This document shows positions 9,300-48,493 of a stretch of 64,000 bases of DNA, in pieces. This stretch comes from Escherichia coli (GTDB lineage: Bacteria > Pseudomonadota > Gammaproteobacteria > Enterobacterales > Enterobacteriaceae): assembly GCF_024298765.1 (NCBI RefSeq), contig NZ_CP101210.1; one strand, 5' to 3'. Numbering within the stretch: position 1 is the stretch's first letter; every line of letters begins with the position of its first letter. The position numbers and the translations under genes are program-made. The notes below the pieces were generated by a model, which saw nothing but the letters and a program-made list of their open reading frames with translations, was not told the DNA's origin and made no database searches.

Positions 9300-9683
9300 G
9301 ATGCCCTCCAATATGGTTATTTTTTATTGTGAATTAAGATAGGTGAGTACGACGTAAAAAGATGTGAAGCAAATCACATCAGTGTAATCGCTTACACTAA
9401 CATTTATCTTGGTTATGATTTAAGTGCATGAAAATAATTGAGTTATATCATCATAGATTAAACGCTGTTATCTGCAATTAAGACTTTACTGAAAAGAAAT
9501 GTAACAACTGTGAAAACTGAATAATAATATGAAAATATTACAAATATTTGGCTGGTGTGGTTGGTGTAATCGGTTTCAGTAATGATGATAATTTGCGGTA
9601 AAACGTGTTGAGGAAGAATGATGTTATTGTGCGGGCGGTTTTTTTGCCGGATGCGGCGTGAATGTCTATCCACCGCGGTGAGG

Positions 9684-16443: not shown

Positions 16444-16720
16444 GTTTTCTCTTCCGCACAAGGTCAGGATTATTCTAAAAATGCGCCGTTTGCAGGTGAA
16501 TCGACGCTCAGTCTCAGTATAAGGAAAAGCGCAGCGGACGGGCGAGCAGATTGCGCAACATGCGAGCATGATCCAGAGATTTCTGAAGCGGCAAAAGGAT
16601 GTTCCATGTACATGACGCGCGGCTTGCGGTAAATTGTTGGCAAATTTTCCGGCGTAGCCCAAAACGCGCTGTCGTCAAGTCGTTAAGGGCGTGCCCTTCA
16701 TCATCCGATCTGGAGTCAAA

Positions 16721-18712
16721 ATGTCCTCACGTAAAGAGCTTGCCAATGCTATTCGTGCGCTGAGCATGGACGCAGTACAGAAAGCCAAATCCGGTCACCC
16801 GGGTGCCCCTATGGGTATGGCTGACATTGCCGAAGTCCTGTGGCGTGATTTCCTGAAACACAACCCGCAGAATCCGTCCTGGGCTGACCGTGACCGCTTC
16901 GTGCTGTCCAACGGCCACGGCTCCATGCTGATCTACAGCCTGCTGCACCTCACCGGTTACGATCTGCCGATGGAAGAACTGAAAAACTTCCGTCAGCTGC
17001 ACTCTAAAACTCCGGGCCACCCGGAAGTGGGTTACACCGCTGGCGTGGAAACCACTACAGGTCCGCTGGGTCAGGGTATTGCCAACGCAGTCGGTATGGC
17101 GATTGCAGAAAAAACGCTGGCGGCGCAGTTTAACCGTCCGGGCCACGACATCGTCGACCACTACACCTACGCCTTCATGGGCGACGGCTGCATGATGGAA
17201 GGCATCTCCCACGAAGTTTGTTCTCTGGCGGGTACGCTGAAGCTGGGTAAACTGATTGCGTTCTACGATGACAACGGTATCTCTATCGATGGTCACGTTG
17301 AAGGCTGGTTCACCGACGACACCGCAATGCGTTTCGAAGCTTACGGCTGGCACGTTATTCGCGGCATCGACGGTCATGACGCGGCATCCATCAAACGCGC
17401 AGTAGAAGAAGCGCGCGCAGTGACTGACAAACCGTCCCTGCTGATGTGCAAAACCATCATCGGTTTCGGTTCCCCGAACAAAGCCGGTACGCACGACTCC
17501 CACGGTGCGCCGCTGGGCGACGCTGAAATTGCCCTGACCCGCGAACAGCTGGGCTGGAAATATGCACCGTTCGAAATCCCGTCTGAAATCTATGCTCAGT
17601 GGGATGCGAAAGAAGCAGGCCAGGCGAAAGAATCCGCATGGAACGAGAAATTCGCTGCTTACGCGAAAGCTTATCCGCAGGAAGCCGCTGAATTTACCCG
17701 CCGTATGAAAGGCGAAATGCCGTCTGACTTCGACGCCAAAGCGAAAGAGTTCATCGCTAAACTGCAGGCTAACCCGGCGAAAATCGCCAGCCGTAAAGCG
17801 TCTCAGAATGCGATTGAAGCGTTCGGCCCGCTGTTGCCGGAATTCCTCGGCGGCTCTGCTGACCTGGCACCGTCTAACCTGACCCTGTGGTCTGGTTCTA
17901 AAGCAATCAACGAAGATGCTGCGGGTAACTACATCCACTACGGTGTTCGCGAGTTCGGTATGACCGCGATTGCTAACGGTATCTCCCTGCACGGTGGCTT
18001 CCTGCCGTACACCTCCACCTTCCTGATGTTCGTGGAATACGCACGTAACGCCGTACGTATGGCTGCGCTGATGAAACAGCGTCAGGTGATGGTTTACACC
18101 CACGACTCCATCGGTCTGGGCGAAGATGGCCCGACTCACCAGCCGGTTGAGCAGGTCGCTTCACTGCGCGTGACCCCGAACATGTCCACATGGCGTCCGT
18201 GTGACCAGGTTGAATCCGCGGTCGCGTGGAAATACGGCGTTGAGCGTCAGGACGGCCCGACTGCGCTTATCCTCTCCCGTCAGAACCTGGCGCAGCAGGA
18301 ACGTACTGAAGAGCAGCTGGCAAACATCGCGCGCGGTGGTTATGTGCTGAAAGACTGTGCCGGTCAGCCGGAACTGATCTTCATCGCGACCGGTTCTGAA
18401 GTTGAACTGGCGGTTGCTGCCTACGAAAAACTGACTGCTGAAGGCGTGAAAGCGCGCGTGGTTTCCATGCCGTCTACCGACGCGTTCGACAAGCAGGATG
18501 CGGCTTACCGTGAGTCTGTACTGCCGAAAGCGGTTACTGCACGCGTTGCGGTGGAAGCGGGTATTGCTGACTACTGGTACAAGTATGTTGGCCTGAACGG
18601 TGCTATCGTCGGCATGACCACCTTCGGTGAATCTGCTCCGGCAGAGCTGCTGTTTGAAGAGTTCGGCTTCACCGTTGACAACGTTGTTGCGAAAGCGAAA
18701 GCGCTGCTGTAA
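16721..18712 (+). CDS. tktA: Transketolase 1 TktA (663 aa)
   Basis: ORF 16691..18712 trimmed to [19 protein letters not shown]. Confidence 0.95.
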
Positions 18713-18734
18713 TCGGTAAGATGCTTTGTGAGAA

Positions 18735-18759
18735 GGGCCGCGAAAGCGGCCCTTTTTTT
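18735..18759 (+). terminator. Rho-independent terminator of tktA
   Basis: gggccgcgaaagcggccc followed by ttttttt; the T-run overlaps the stop codon of the convergent SPFH gene. Confidence 0.65.
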
Positions 18760-19666
18760 ACTTAGTAGAGATAAACGGAACTGTACTGCCGGGGATCATG
18801 GTATCGGGTAGCTTACCGTCCCAACGCTCAGCAGTGGTGAGGGCAACAAGTCCGGGATTATCCCGCAGAGCTTCACCGCGCAGGCGGATCGCTTCTGCTT
18901 CAGCCGCACTTTTTAAACGAATAGTTTCAGCCTCTGCCGCGCCTCTTACGCGAATAGTCTCAGCTTCTGCTTTGGCTGCCGCCAGTTTACTGTCTGCTTC
19001 AGCCTGGGCCTGAGTTACTGCTATTTGCGCCTGGATTTTCTCTGTTTCCAGATTTTGCTTACGTGTGGCAATGGCGACTTCTGCTTTCATTCGATCTTCA
19101 ATCGATTTTTCATAAGCGTCAGAAAAATCAATATTTTCAATCTGGACACCATCAATCACCACCGGGCCAACAACGGCTTTACGCATTGCATTTTGCAGAT
19201 CCTGAACCAGTTTTGTACGATCCTGTACCGCGCTGATGGCGGTATATTGGCCGAAAACGTTCTCCAGTTGAGTTGGCAGCTGGCGGACGATCAGACGCTC
19301 TTTTAAAGATTCAATGGTGTTGTAGGTTGTATAAACTGCGCCAGCTTCTGAAGGTTTAATGTGGAAGCTGACTGATACTGTCATTTGTGCCGGTTGCTGG
19401 TCGCGGCTGTAGGCCTGTAATCCCTGATAAACCACAGCCTGATTACGCGTGGAAATTTTCTCCACGCTTTCCATAAAAGGGATCTTAAAACCCAGACCCG
19501 GCTCGGCAACTTTTACGATTTTTCCGTAGCGCAGCAAAATGCCGCGTTCACCTTCATTAACGGTGTAATACGAGAGAAATGGCAGCACAACCACGGCAAG
19601 CACGCCAATGACGATAGCAATAGATTTTTGTGGGCGAAATGAGGTTATTGAAACAGGTGCTTTCAT
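18758..19666 (-). CDS. SPFH/band-7 (prohibitin/HflC-like) membrane protein with C-terminal repeat-containing coiled coil (302 aa); candidate accessory gene
   Basis: ORF 18758..19666 with SD aaggaag 7 nt upstream; N-terminal TM helix (IAIVIGVLAVVVLPF) followed by an SPFH-like region; C-terminal AEAETIRVRGA/AEAETIRLKSA/AEAEAIRLRGE repeats. Confidence 0.8.
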   Translation of the reverse strand: MKAPVSITSFRPQKSIAIVIGVLAVVVLPFLSYYTVNEGERGILLRYGKIVKVAEPGLGFKIPFMESVEKISTRNQAVVYQGLQAYSRDQQPAQMTVSVSFHIKPSEAGAVYTTYNTIESLKERLIVRQLPTQLENVFGQYTAISAVQDRTKLVQDLQNAMRKAVVGPVVIDGVQIENIDFSDAYEKSIEDRMKAEVAIATRKQNLETEKIQAQIAVTQAQAEADSKLAAAKAEAETIRVRGAAEAETIRLKSAAEAEAIRLRGEALRDNPGLVALTTAERWDGKLPDTMIPGSTVPFISTK

Positions 19667-20043
19667 GACAATCTTCCTTGAGTAAAGTGTGGGAATATGT
19701 CACATGAGGTGAGGAGAAAACAGCCTACAGGTGAGAATTCAGAATCTATAAAGGGGTATAGCGAAAAAACATTGCATTAAAAAAGTATGTTTTCGGACAT
19801 TCAATAAATAAATGGCGATATGTATCACAAATACAACAACAATCAAAATGTTGATTTTGTGATAAACATAACAAATACAAAGTTGACTTTAAAAATATCA
19901 ATTTCATTTTGTTGTTATTTAAAGTTTTATTATTTTTGTTCATGGGGTTTTTCTTCTCGCGTACCCAATTGCTTTCATTAAACCGCACGAGTATTTTATT
20001 TTTACCGCCGGACGGTACCCTAAAAATAAAATAAGGATAATTT

Positions 20044-20487
20044 ATGCGGCTTATTGATTATTTTCCAGAATCATCAATCTCAGTTATACATTCAGCAAAA
20101 GATTGGCAGGAAGCTATCGATTTCTCGATGGCATCATTGCTGGATAAAAACTATATCAGCGAGAATTACATTCAGGCAATTAAAGATTCCACCATTAACA
20201 ATGGCCCTTATTATATTCTCGCACCAGGCGTGGCAATGCCTCATGCGCGACCGGAATGTGGGGCGCTTAAAACCGGGATGTCTTTGACATTACTTGAACA
20301 AGGTGTTTATTTTCCGGGGAATGACGAACCAATTAAATTACTCATCGGACTCTCTGCTGCCGATGCCGATTCGCACATTGGCGCTATTCAGGCGTTAAGT
20401 GAATTACTGTGCGAAGAAGAAATACTCGAACAACTCTTAACAGCATCATCAGAAAAACAATTAGCGGACATTATCAGCCGCGGATAA
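20044..20487 (+). CDS. cmtB: Mannitol-type PTS EIIA component CmtB (147 aa)
   Basis: ORF 20044..20487; translation matches recalled CmtB. Confidence 0.85.
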   Translation: MRLIDYFPESSISVIHSAKDWQEAIDFSMASLLDKNYISENYIQAIKDSTINNGPYYILAPGVAMPHARPECGALKTGMSLTLLEQGVYFPGNDEPIKLLIGLSAADADSHIGAIQALSELLCEEEILEQLLTASSEKQLADIISRG

Positions 20488-24178: not shown

Positions 24179-24688
24179 ATGGCGACGCTGACAGAAGATG
24201 ATGTGCTTGAGCAACTGGATGCACAGGACAATTTATTTTCATTTATGAAAACTACGCATTCTATTTTGCTCCAGGGGATACGCCAGTTTCTGCCGTCGCT
24301 GTTTGTCGATAATGATGAAGAGATCGTCGAATATGCAGTGAAGCCGTTACTCGCCCAAAGCGGCCCGCTTGACGATATTGATGTTGCACTGCGTTTGATT
24401 TATGCGCTGGGGAAAATGGATAAATGGCTGTACGCCGATATCACGCATTTTTCCCAGTTCTGGCATTACCTGAACGAACAGGATGAAATGCCCGGATTTG
24501 CCGATGACATGACCTGGGATTTTATCAGCAACGTCAATAGCATAACCCGCAATGCGACGCTCTATGACGCGTTGAAAGCGATGAAGTTCGCCGATTTCGC
24601 CGTCTGGTCAGAGGCGCGTTTTAGCAGGATGGTCAAAACGGCGCTGACGCTGGCAGTAACGACCACCTTAAAGGAATTAACGCCGTGA
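24179..24688 (+). CDS. yggD: MtlR-like transcriptional regulator YggD (169 aa)
   Basis: ORF 24179..24688; position in the cmt cluster. Confidence 0.8.
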   Translation: MATLTEDDVLEQLDAQDNLFSFMKTTHSILLQGIRQFLPSLFVDNDEEIVEYAVKPLLAQSGPLDDIDVALRLIYALGKMDKWLYADITHFSQFWHYLNEQDEMPGFADDMTWDFISNVNSITRNATLYDALKAMKFADFAVWSEARFSRMVKTALTLAVTTTLKELTP

Positions 24689-25398
24689 AAATTGAATTAA
24701 CGGTGAATGGGCTGAAGATACAGGCACAGTACCAGAACGAAGAGATTGAAAATGTACATAAACCGTTGCTGCACATGTTGGCGGCCTTACAGACGGTAAA
24801 TCCGCAGCGGCGTACGGTGGTTTTTCTTTGCGCTCCGCCGGGGACGGGTAAATCTACCCTAACCACCTTCTGGGAATATCTCGCGCAACAAGACCCGGAG
24901 CTGCCCGCTATTCAGACGCTGCCGATGGATGGTTTTCATCATTACAATAGCTGGCTGGATGCGCATCAATTGCGCCCCTTCAAAGGCGCACCAGAGACAT
25001 TTGACGTTGCGAAACTGGCGGAAAATCTGCGCCAGGTAATGGAAGGGGATTGTACGTGGCCGCAGTACGATCGACAAAAGCATGATCCTGTTGAAGATGC
25101 GTTGCACGTTACCGCACCACTCGTCATCGTCGAAGGAAACTGGCTATTATTGGATGATGAAAAGTGGCAGGAGTTGGCATCTTTCTGCGATTTTTCTATT
25201 TTTATTCATGCACCTGCTCAAATTCTGCGGGAGCGCTTGATTAGTCGTAAAATTGCGGGAGGATTATCGCGGCAAGAAGCCGAAGCTTTTTATGCCCGAA
25301 CCGATGGTCCCAATGTCGAGCGTGTGCTGGTGAATAGTCGTCAGGCCAATCTGATATTAGAGATGACCGAAGAAGGCAGATATCACTTCAAAAGCTGA
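24685..25398 (+). CDS. yggC: P-loop kinase-like protein YggC (237 aa)
   Basis: ORF 24685..25398 (GTG start); Walker A GTGKST. Confidence 0.8.
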   Translation: MKIELTVNGLKIQAQYQNEEIENVHKPLLHMLAALQTVNPQRRTVVFLCAPPGTGKSTLTTFWEYLAQQDPELPAIQTLPMDGFHHYNSWLDAHQLRPFKGAPETFDVAKLAENLRQVMEGDCTWPQYDRQKHDPVEDALHVTAPLVIVEGNWLLLDDEKWQELASFCDFSIFIHAPAQILRERLISRKIAGGLSRQEAEAFYARTDGPNVERVLVNSRQANLILEMTEEGRYHFKS

Positions 25399-46843: not shown

Positions 46844-48046
46844 ATGCAAAGTGTTGATGTAGCCATTGTTGGCGGCGGCATGGTGGGGCTGGCGGTTGCC
46901 TGCGGCTTGCAGGGTAGCGGCTTACGCGTTGCCGTACTGGAGCAGCGCGTACCGGAACCTCTGGCGGCGGATGCACCACCACAACTGCGCGTTTCGGCTA
47001 TCAATGCCGCCAGCGAAAAATTACTCACCCGTCTTGGCGTCTGGCAGGACATTCTCTCTCGTAGGGCCAGTTGTTATCACGGTATGGAAGTGTGGGACAA
47101 AGACAGTTTTGGTCACATTTCGTTTGACGATCAAAGCATGGGCTATAGCCATCTTGGGCATATCGTTGAAAACTCGGTGATTCACTACGCGCTGTGGAAC
47201 AAAGCGCAGCAGTCGTCAGATATCACTCTGTTGGCCCCCGCAGAATTACAGCAGGTCGCCTGGGGAGAAAATGAAACCTTCCTGACGTTGAAAGATGGCA
47301 GTATGTTAACGGCGCGTCTGGTGATTGGCGCGGACGGCGCTAATTCCTGGTTGCGCAACAAAGCCGATATTCCGCTGACTTTCTGGGATTATCAGCATCA
47401 CGCGCTGGTAGCGACCATTCGCACGGAAGAACCGCATGATGCGGTGGCGCGGCAGGTTTTTCATGGCGAAGGCATTCTGGCCTTTTTGCCGCTTAGCGAT
47501 CCGCATCTTTGCTCGATTGTCTGGTCACTGTCGCCAGAGGAAGCGCAGCGGATGCAGCAGGCAGGCGAAGACGAATTTAATCGCGCGTTAAATATCGCTT
47601 TTGATAATCGCCTGGGCTTATGCAAGGTTGAAAGTGAGCGCCTGGTGTTCCCGCTAACGGGGCGTTATGCGCGCCAGTTTGCCGCACACCGTCTGGCGCT
47701 GGTGGGCGACGCCGCGCATACTATTCACCCGCTGGCGGGGCAGGGGGTAAATCTCGGCTTTATGGATGCTGCAGAGCTGATTGCTGAACTGAAACGGTTG
47801 CATCGTCAGGGTAAAGACATCGGGCAGTACATTTACCTGCGTCGCTATGAGCGTAGCCGTAAGCACAGTGCGGCGCTGATGCTGGCTGGTATGCAGGGAT
47901 TCCGCGATCTGTTTTCCGGTACCAATCCGGCGAAAAAATTGCTGCGTGATATTGGTTTAAAACTGGCCGACACGCTTCCTGGCGTTAAACCACAACTTAT
48001 CCGCCAGGCAATGGGATTAAACGATTTGCCTGAATGGCTGCGTTAA
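46844..48046 (+). CDS. ubiI: 2-octaprenylphenol hydroxylase UbiI (VisC, 400 aa)
   Basis: ORF 46844..48046; FAD-binding GGGMVG. Confidence 0.9.
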   Translation: MQSVDVAIVGGGMVGLAVACGLQGSGLRVAVLEQRVPEPLAADAPPQLRVSAINAASEKLLTRLGVWQDILSRRASCYHGMEVWDKDSFGHISFDDQSMGYSHLGHIVENSVIHYALWNKAQQSSDITLLAPAELQQVAWGENETFLTLKDGSMLTARLVIGADGANSWLRNKADIPLTFWDYQHHALVATIRTEEPHDAVARQVFHGEGILAFLPLSDPHLCSIVWSLSPEEAQRMQQAGEDEFNRALNIAFDNRLGLCKVESERLVFPLTGRYARQFAAHRLALVGDAAHTIHPLAGQGVNLGFMDAAELIAELKRLHRQGKDIGQYIYLRRYERSRKHSAALMLAGMQGFRDLFSGTNPAKKLLRDIGLKLADTLPGVKPQLIRQAMGLNDLPEWLR

Positions 48047-48089
48047 AAATTTCTCCTCTGTTGTTTATTTGATACCCATCACACTTTCA

Positions 48090-48117
48090 TCTCCCGGTTT
48101 TTTCGCCGGGAGATTTT
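48090..48117 (+). terminator. Rho-independent terminator after ubiI
   Basis: Stem tctcccgg/ccgggaga with a T-rich loop, then tttt. Confidence 0.5.
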
Positions 48118-48129
48118 CCTCATTTGAAA

Positions 48130-48493
48130 TAAACTAATTTCACCTCCGTTTTCGCATTATATTTTCTAATGTCATGATTTTTTGATTTAGTGTTTTTTGA
48201 CATTTTTTTAGTTCTTAATATTGCATTAATCAAATTAACTTTCTCATCTGTTTATCTTTATATAGAGATTTGTTCATTTTTTGGTTTTTTATTCTGTTGC
48301 GATTTTTGCATTTTTTAACCATAAGCTAATGTGATGATCAATTTTACCTTATGGTTAACAGTCTGTTTCGGTGGTAAGTTCAGGCAAAAGAGAACGATTG
48401 CGTTGGGGACCGGGAGTGGCTCCGATGCTGGGTTTCGTGGTGATAATTTCGCCATGGAAAAGTTGTCAGCCCCGCTTATTCAATGAGGACAAG
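48130..48493 (+). promoter_or_regulatory. AT-rich gcvTHP promoter/control region
   Basis: About 360 bp of AT-rich sequence upstream of gcvT containing CTAAT...ATTAG-like motifs (e.g. ctaatgtcatgattttttgatttag at about 48166..48190) of the kind bound by GcvA; assignment from position and established gcv regulation. Confidence 0.4.

Follow-up and report, generated by a model that had tools for sequence, protein, structure and literature searches.

The 377-bp spacer that separates cmtB from a divergent SPFH gene in Escherichia coli is very likely an old, vertically inherited, AT-rich and CRP-controlled regulatory region of the cmtBA-yggPFDC operon, which also serves the SPFH gene inserted beside it. 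A pair of CRP sites is the clearest functional signal in the spacer and had been missed by the original prediction, in which the region was read as an H-NS-bound promoter silencing a cryptic, xenogeneic cmt cluster. That CRP controls cmtB in K-12 has been published before; the present analysis adds a second CRP site, family-wide conservation, a two-allele structure and some conserved motifs. The region can be described as the CRP-dependent promoter of an old catabolic operon, and one that is probably modulated by H-NS. Coordinates of all features are collected in Table 1, where the window denotes the whole 64-kb stretch of DNA that was analysed.

Table 1. Features of the SPFH gene-cmtB spacer and of the flanking genes, in window coordinates
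Feature	Position	Strand	Remarks
tkt	16691-18712	+	
SPFH/Band 7 (prohibitin-family) gene, accessory	18758-19666	-	Pfam PF01145, E = 3.5e-30
Divergent spacer, SPFH gene/cmtB	19667-20043		From ORFs and sequence; GC 0.310
SPFH-side leader/promoter segment	19667-19784	-	GC 0.37; without counterpart in the K-12-type allele; blocks shared among SPFH-bearing Escherichia
Candidate extended -10 of the SPFH gene (TGaCATATT)	19695-19703	-	Putative promoter, start near 19688; invariant in 8 of 8 SPFH-bearing sequences, including E. albertii
Distal regulatory segment, fast-evolving	19785-19965		GC 0.26; alignable to the K-12-type allele, 52% identity
Invariant CAA	19802-19804		22 of 22 sequences; 9 bp outside CRP site 1, mirrors TTG 19883-19885
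CRP-like site 1, GGCGATATGTATCACA	19814-19829		12.5 bits; centre 222.5 bp upstream of cmtB ATG; aligns with published K-12/ETEC CGTGTTGTAGATCACA
CRP-like site 2, TGTGATAAACATAACA	19858-19873		15.1 bits; centre 178.5 bp upstream of cmtB ATG; 44 bp from site 1
Distal sigma-70 candidate TTGACT-16-CATTTT	19883-19910	+	Predicted start near 19917; best plus-strand score, weak; poor -10
aTTGTTAT block, possible operator	19911-19918		TG 19913-19914 invariant; in many species the right arm of ATAAC-N5-GTTAT (by eye in the alignment)
cmtB-proximal core	19966-20043	+	GC 0.33; identical in the window and K-12-type alleles
Proximal sigma-70 candidate TTGCTT-17-TATTTT	19969-19997	+	Predicted start near A20004; second-best score, weak
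Perfect 13-bp inverted repeat, TATTTTATTTTTA (19992-20004) / TAAAAATAAAATA (20021-20033)	19992-20033		Variable GC-rich 16 nt between the arms; reaches Shine-Dalgarno AAGGA (20033-20037)
cmtB (PTS EIIA), first gene of cmtBA-yggPFDC	20044-20487	+	Pfam PF00359

Locus layout and base composition

The gap lies exactly between the start codons of the SPFH gene and cmtB, as the original prediction had placed it, and RefSeq gives the same two genes. In strain 104, which is 100% identical over 18700-20100, the annotation there reads tkt, prohibitin-family protein and cmtB. Downstream of cmtB, cmtA, yggP, yggF, yggD (MltR family) and yggC follow intact on the plus strand, and the window CmtB differs from that of K-12 by two amino acids. 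The cmtB gene of E. coli 14EC017 (L001 2579-2995) carries a premature stop at codon 139, with 138 aa annotated versus 147 in K-12 and the window. The last gene of the operon, yggC (24685-25398), belongs to the nucleoside/nucleotide-kinase family and has weak similarity to uridine kinase, which is curious beside the published uridine induction of the cmt promoter.

Mean GC content is 0.310 (31.0%) in the spacer versus 0.519 (51.9%) across the 64-kb window. Among all 377-bp windows this value ranks at the 0.3rd percentile, and the lowest value of the whole window, 0.292, falls inside this region. In the spacer, 11 A/T runs are 6 or more long and 15 A- or T-tracts are 4 or more long, bearing out the strong AT-richness and the A/T tracts on which the original prediction was built. 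Composition is uneven within the spacer, with the lowest GC in the middle 181 bp and higher values in the 118 bp on the SPFH side and the 78 bp next to cmtB (Table 1). Among the genes, AT content is raised weakly in cmtB (GC 0.42); cmtA (0.50), yggP (0.51), yggF (0.57) and the SPFH gene (0.48) do not share the well above-average AT content of the spacer.

Only three places in the 64 kb fall to 30% GC or less over 200 bp, namely the cmt spacer, the metK-galP spacer (9301-9632) and the region upstream of gcvT (48038-48407). All three AT troughs hold strong CRP-type sites, each matching a published K-12 site. Since the AT extremes of the window all carry CRP sites, extreme AT-richness marks regulated promoters here and nothing more unusual. 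The sites in the other two troughs, at 9363 (TGTGAAGCAAATCACA) and 48068 (TTTGATACCCATCACA), are each identical to a published K-12 SELEX site.

Paired CRP sites and the cmtB promoter

CRP sites were scored with a position weight matrix derived from 105 ChIP-seq sites of Haycocks et al. 2015, from which the cmtB site was excluded and on which the median real site scores 13.0 bits. Both spacer sites match the 16-bp CRP core TGTGA-N6-TCACA as strongly as genuine sites do. Only six sites in the 64 kb score at least 12 bits, these two among them, and two sites this strong appeared in none of 5000 dinucleotide-preserving shuffles of the spacer. The same matrix recovers the published K-12 sites of the window at galP, epd, scpA, serA and gcvT.

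The arrangement is conserved in orthologous promoters. In the K-12-type allele, CGTGTTGTAGATCACA and TGTAATATGCATCACG lie at the identical distances of -222.5 and -178.5, and a scan of 30 genomes of related genera placed CRP sites at about one or both of these positions in most of them, as in either E. coli allele. The same or nearby positions with 44-bp spacing occur in E. whittamii, E. albertii, Citrobacter, Salmonella arizonae/diarizonae, Silvania, Lelliottia, Raoultella and Superficieibacter; taken over the genera beyond E. coli, most have either the 44-bp pair or at least one site at or near the same position. In the cross-genus alignment the TGTGA/TCACA half-sites are kept amid N6 interiors and flanks that vary freely, which is the pattern expected under selection on a binding site. 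The CRP positions have thus stayed in place within DNA whose identity has otherwise fallen to about 50%. Two E. coli genomes depart from this arrangement and may represent natural regulatory variants: PMV-1 (phylogroup B2, L004) has lost a recognisable CRP site 2, and SCPM-O-B-8794 (L007) has no CRP-type site of at least 9 bits in its 380-bp spacer.

According to published K-12 and ETEC reports, cmt promoter activity is CRP-dependent, glucose-repressed and uridine-inducible. CRP ChIP-seq in ETEC H10407 yielded a cmtB peak whose site, TGTGATCTACAACACG, is K-12 site 1 read on the opposite strand (Haycocks et al. 2015, PMC4287617). Genomic SELEX identified the same CRP site in the interval that separates cmtBA-yggPFDC from tktA (Shimada et al. 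2011, PMC3105977), and in K-12 a crp mutation lowers the activity of the cmtB promoter (PMC3105977). A PcmtA-GFP reporter is likewise CRP-dependent, being lower in delta-crp, and is induced about 6-fold by uridine (Sci Adv 2025, PMC12412646). Deletion of cmtA raises the tobramycin MIC in MG1655 (PMC12412646), and cmtB is upregulated in EHEC in bovine gut contents relative to glucose medium (PMC6199705). An inducible promoter together with a delta-cmtA phenotype means that the operon is regulated and not silent, so that the description of cmt as cryptic or silenced does not fit. The CRP experiments concern the K-12/ETEC allele, which is 52% identical to the window allele distally; for the latter, CRP binding and dependence are predicted from conservation of the sites.

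Two further regulators were considered between and around the CRP sites and rejected. In CytR-CRP promoters the tandem CRP sites are separated by about 52-53 bp and enclose CytR half-sites (TGCAA). CytR co-regulation, a candidate for the uridine induction, does not fit the cmt promoter, in which the CRP spacing is 44 bp in all lineages and the inter-site sequence is unconserved; a literature search found no paper linking CytR to cmt. The published uridine effect spans many CRP-dependent transporters and requires CRP, which makes an extra factor unnecessary. For IHF, two of the four exact matches to the consensus (WATCAANNNNTTR) in the window fall between the CRP sites, and four matches are within chance. 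These two overlap at 19841-19856 on opposite strands, arise from the palindrome CAAAATGTTGATTTTG, and belong to a motif that neither the K-12 allele nor the other genera conserve.

A strict promoter and terminator scan found none inside the spacer, and a weighted sigma-70 scan returned weak candidates only, such weakness in both sigma-70 elements being expected of an activator-dependent promoter. Conservation of these and other spacer motifs was read from a 22-sequence alignment. Upstream, the TTG at 19883-19885, 9 bp outside CRP site 2, and the A at 19906 are invariant. In the proximal core, TTG(C/A)TT at 19969-19974, GTATTTT with TATTTT at 19992-19997, GTACC and the Shine-Dalgarno region are conserved, and the 17-bp spacing between -35 and -10 is ungapped in all 22 sequences except that of E. 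albertii, where it is one base shorter. Relative to the candidate start at 19917 the CRP sites are centred at -51.5 and -95.5, and relative to that at 20004 at -138.5 and -182.5. Neither predicted start places them at a class I or class II position (-41.5, -61.5, -71.5, -92.5 and so on). Given these non-canonical distances for either start, CRP probably acts from a distance.

Two cAMP-CRP sites 44 bp apart would tie transcription to catabolite de-repression. The weak conserved sigma-70 core downstream would most likely be TTGCTT-17-TATTTT with a start near 20004, the alternative being a start near 19917. Remote action of CRP would probably involve either DNA bending or the countering of H-NS on the 26%-GC stretch that runs from the sites to the core. 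H-NS would, in such a mechanism, lower the basal expression of a normal catabolic promoter and not silence foreign DNA.

The 13-bp inverted repeat before cmtB adds a further candidate element. Across 28 species, 93.8% of the cells in its arms are paired and one-sided changes are G-U compatible; no compensatory changes were seen in the arms in these species. RNAalifold found no consensus structure, and the single-sequence fold (z = -1.29) is no better than that of shuffled sequences. The repeat may be an operator that spans the -10 region to the ribosome-binding site, and the operon-specific regulator acting there could speculatively be the MltR/MtlR-family protein YggD. It may equally be a -10 region next to an A-rich translation leader, each conserved on its own account, as the lack of covariation would allow. 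The GC-rich centre forms short stems in most species, in shifting registers, and its covariation was not counted as evidence. An operator common with mtlA was also rejected, a counterpart of the repeat not being found upstream of K-12 mtlA.

Two E. coli alleles and the age of the cmt region

E. coli has two deeply diverged cmt control-region alleles. Genomes without the SPFH gene, K-12, O157 and ETEC-type strains included, carry tkt, a 313-bp spacer and cmtB. Their high-identity match to the window starts at 19966 and, among the matches listed, amounts to 98.5-99.3% identity in alignments that run 135 bp into cmtB; identity of the proximal core to the K-12-type allele is 100% over the alignment columns up to the cmtB ATG. 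The distal segment is 43-56% identical between lineages; with 52% identity, the two E. coli alleles differ in it at least as much as E. coli differs from Citrobacter or Salmonella. The junction at 19965/19966 is abrupt, with a hyper-diverged block (about 52% between E. coli alleles, and also between E. coli and E. albertii) on one side and the conserved 78 bp on the other. Proteins flanking the distal segment are 87-99% identical (19785-19965 compared with L001 2319-2500 and with L008).

The SPFH gene is present in 1816 of 5426 complete E. coli genomes (about a third), as against 5407 of the 5426 for cmtB. Its occurrence at the tkt-cmtB locus is confined to Escherichia, where it is found in E. 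coli strains, in E. albertii and E. whittamii, and in two more lineages of the genus. Among the E. coli strains that carry it beside cmt are SE15 and ZH193, both of phylogroup B2, and SE15 has the same haplotype as the window. The comparison of genomes indicates that it is the sole accessory element, inserted between tkt and the cmt regulatory region; that accessory status is limited to this gene had been missed in the original prediction. CRP site 1 lies about 134 bp upstream of its candidate start. Homologues of 80-88% identity occur patchily elsewhere, in Klebsiella spallanzanii, Kluyvera, Phytobacter, Kosakonia and other Enterobacterales. The C-terminus of the protein bears imperfect 11-residue repeats (AEAETIRVRGA / AEAETIRLKSA / AEAEAIRLRGE), and homologues range in length from 201 to 311 aa. 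In some strains the stretch that links tkt to the 3' end of the SPFH gene is longer by 160-350 bases. The extra DNA of ECO_1_S (L002 1040-1400, at about 18713-18757) is a tandem duplication comprising a REP/BIME-like unit and a copy of the tkt terminator hairpin.

The cmt cluster has a different history. A CmtB scan of species-representative genomes showed tkt directly followed by cmtB, with an AT-rich spacer of 302-347 bp and GC of 0.29-0.39. This synteny extends over Citrobacter, Salmonella enterica subsp. arizonae/diarizonae, Raoultella, Lelliottia, Enterobacter, Silvania, Huaxiibacter and Superficieibacter; the upstream DNA covered at the Phytobacter locus was too short to reach tkt. Recent horizontal acquisition of cmt finds no support in the distribution of cmtB across E. 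coli and the many enterobacterial genera with the same synteny: a near-universal cmtB and a family-wide AT-rich spacer mean that the cluster is not recently acquired DNA. On comparative sequence grounds, the cmt cluster and its AT-rich promoter region are vertically inherited and ancient. The synteny, the near-universal presence of cmtB and the GC of cmtA, yggP and yggF (0.50-0.57) all speak against the label xenogeneic. Two public records (L028 and L034) look like contamination. One is a contig labelled Chryseobacterium sp. 18061 with an enterobacterial tkt-cmtB locus, the other a 297-bp contig labelled Alkalicoccobacillus porphyridii with 99% protein identity to E. coli CmtB.

Competing readings and comparable promoters

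The spacer could chiefly serve to nucleate H-NS and thereby silence a cryptic cmt cluster of horizontal origin, perhaps along with the SPFH gene, a reading that appears unlikely. GC of 0.31 overall and 0.26 in the central 181 bp, the 15 A/T tracts, the very fast evolution of the distal region (52% identity between alleles) and the truly accessory nature of the SPFH gene are all in keeping with it. In S2 Table of Higashi et al. 2016, cmtBA-yggPFDC is flagged as an H-NS-bound unit (PMC4720273). The ChAP-seq in that study covered K-12, SE11 and SE15, the last of which has the window haplotype; the flag denotes promoter, intergenic or coding binding in at least one strain and is given at the level of the unit, without coordinates or strain (PMC4720273). 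The part of the original prediction that concerned H-NS binding gains support to this extent. The binding motif is not enriched: the spacer has one match with at most two mismatches to TCGATAAATT, the H-NS high-affinity motif, where 1.15 would be expected from shuffles. AA/TT phasing at 10.5 bp, which would indicate intrinsic curvature, was sought and is absent from the spacer. Taken alone, the spacer sequence is only permissive for H-NS, and binding is plausible. Silencing as the main function is further opposed by the synteny of cmt and its AT-rich spacer across enterobacterial genera, their near-universal presence in E. coli and the host-like GC of the cmt genes. Published reports describe a K-12 promoter that is active, CRP-dependent and inducible, and a deletion with a phenotype. 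The kept CRP half-sites show selection for regulated expression, which silencing alone leaves unexplained.

Two other explanations are very improbable. The AT-richness might be a by-product of weak constraint and AT-biased mutation, with only a short core promoter being functional, and most of the distal 181 bp is indeed substitution-saturated, at the 43-56% identity between lineages noted above. Against this stand the CRP half-sites, the CAA at 19802-19804, the TTG at 19883-19885 and the TG at 19913-19914, which are invariant in 22 sequences, the constant distance to the ATG, and a chance of less than 1/5000 of two CRP-grade sites. The spacer might otherwise encode a small RNA, a structured leader or a small protein. 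The 13-bp A-U hairpin is a perfect repeat with well-paired, G-U compatible arms, and the spacer contains three ORFs, of 41, 53 and 80 codons. A permissive Rfam search returned two chance-level hits only and no family match, RNAalifold and the count of compensatory changes were negative as described above, and a start near 20004 would leave the left repeat arm untranscribed. As for the ORFs, the 53-codon frame begins within CRP site 1 at an ATG that the K-12 allele lacks, and the spacer ORFs are unconserved, crossing regions of about 50% identity with indels. The preferred reading, a CRP-controlled regulatory region of the cmt operon, admits a more elaborate version that has only a slim chance of being right. 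It would be a symmetric nucleoprotein switch of the form CAA-N9-[CRP]-N28-[CRP]-N9-TTG, followed by an ATAAC-N5-GTTAT-type block and the 13-bp repeat over the core. Two CRP dimers, too remote for classical activation, would cooperate with an operon-specific factor, which could be the MtlR-family YggD, to open an H-NS-covered promoter, and in Escherichia the inserted SPFH gene would have taken over this switch.

The closest known system is the K-12/ETEC cmtB promoter itself, which shares with the window the locus, the operon, the identical 78 bp, site 1 at 222.5 bp and a second CRP-like site 44 bp downstream. It differs in the distal 181 bp (52% identical), in the sequence of site 1 (GGCGATATGTATCACA in the window versus CGTGTTGTAGATCACA in K-12) and in the upstream neighbour, a divergent SPFH gene in the window and the end of tktA in K-12. 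The second CRP site and the cross-genus conservation go unmentioned in the accessible parts of the K-12 and ETEC reports (PMC3105977, PMC4287617, PMC12412646).

In the paralogous mannitol PTS operon mtlADR, too, several CRP sites lie well upstream of the ATG, and the operon includes a regulator of the MtlR family. Five CRP sites are said to have been mapped at mtl by Ramseier and Saier in 1995. In the ETEC ChIP-seq report, the yibI-mtlA region has two peaks with two CRP sites each (PMC4287617), and the sequence upstream of mtlA shows the CRP sites of that listing. Unlike the cmt spacer, the mtlA upstream region is not especially AT-rich by eye, is without the 13-bp repeat and has another arrangement.

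At papI-papB, CRP has been proposed to relieve H-NS repression. In the AT-rich divergent spacer there, of about 400 bp, a CRP site reportedly sits at the centre, with either promoter over 100 bp away, as Forsman et al. are said to have described in 1992. The cmt CRP pair, about 134-178 bp from the candidate start of the SPFH gene and about 139-183 bp from that near 20004, is similarly placed, and by analogy CRP could counteract H-NS at cmt as well. The Lrp/Dam switch of papI-papB is not evident at the cmt spacer. Finally, the H-NS-bound, fast-diverging intergenic regions of Higashi et al. 2016, for example ybdO, resemble the cmt unit in that it too is flagged and that, between phylogroups, its upstream region has diverged much further than the genes on either side. 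The unit lies outside the horizontally transferred focus genes of that paper, which contains no locus-level description of cmt (PMC4720273).

The analysis corrects the plausible but misleading label of silenced foreign DNA, with little import beyond annotation. Because the control-region alleles are diverged and the SPFH gene is a neighbour in only one of them, K-12 promoter data may not transfer directly to SPFH-haplotype strains. This is of modest value to researchers working on cmtBA, lately implicated in aminoglycoside uptake, for whom targets for mutagenesis are offered by the second CRP site, itself conserved, by the invariant triplets that flank the CRP pair and by the inverted repeat next to the ribosome-binding site. 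In this window, extreme AT-richness is the mark of conserved, CRP-regulated promoters, those of galP, cmtB and gcvT.
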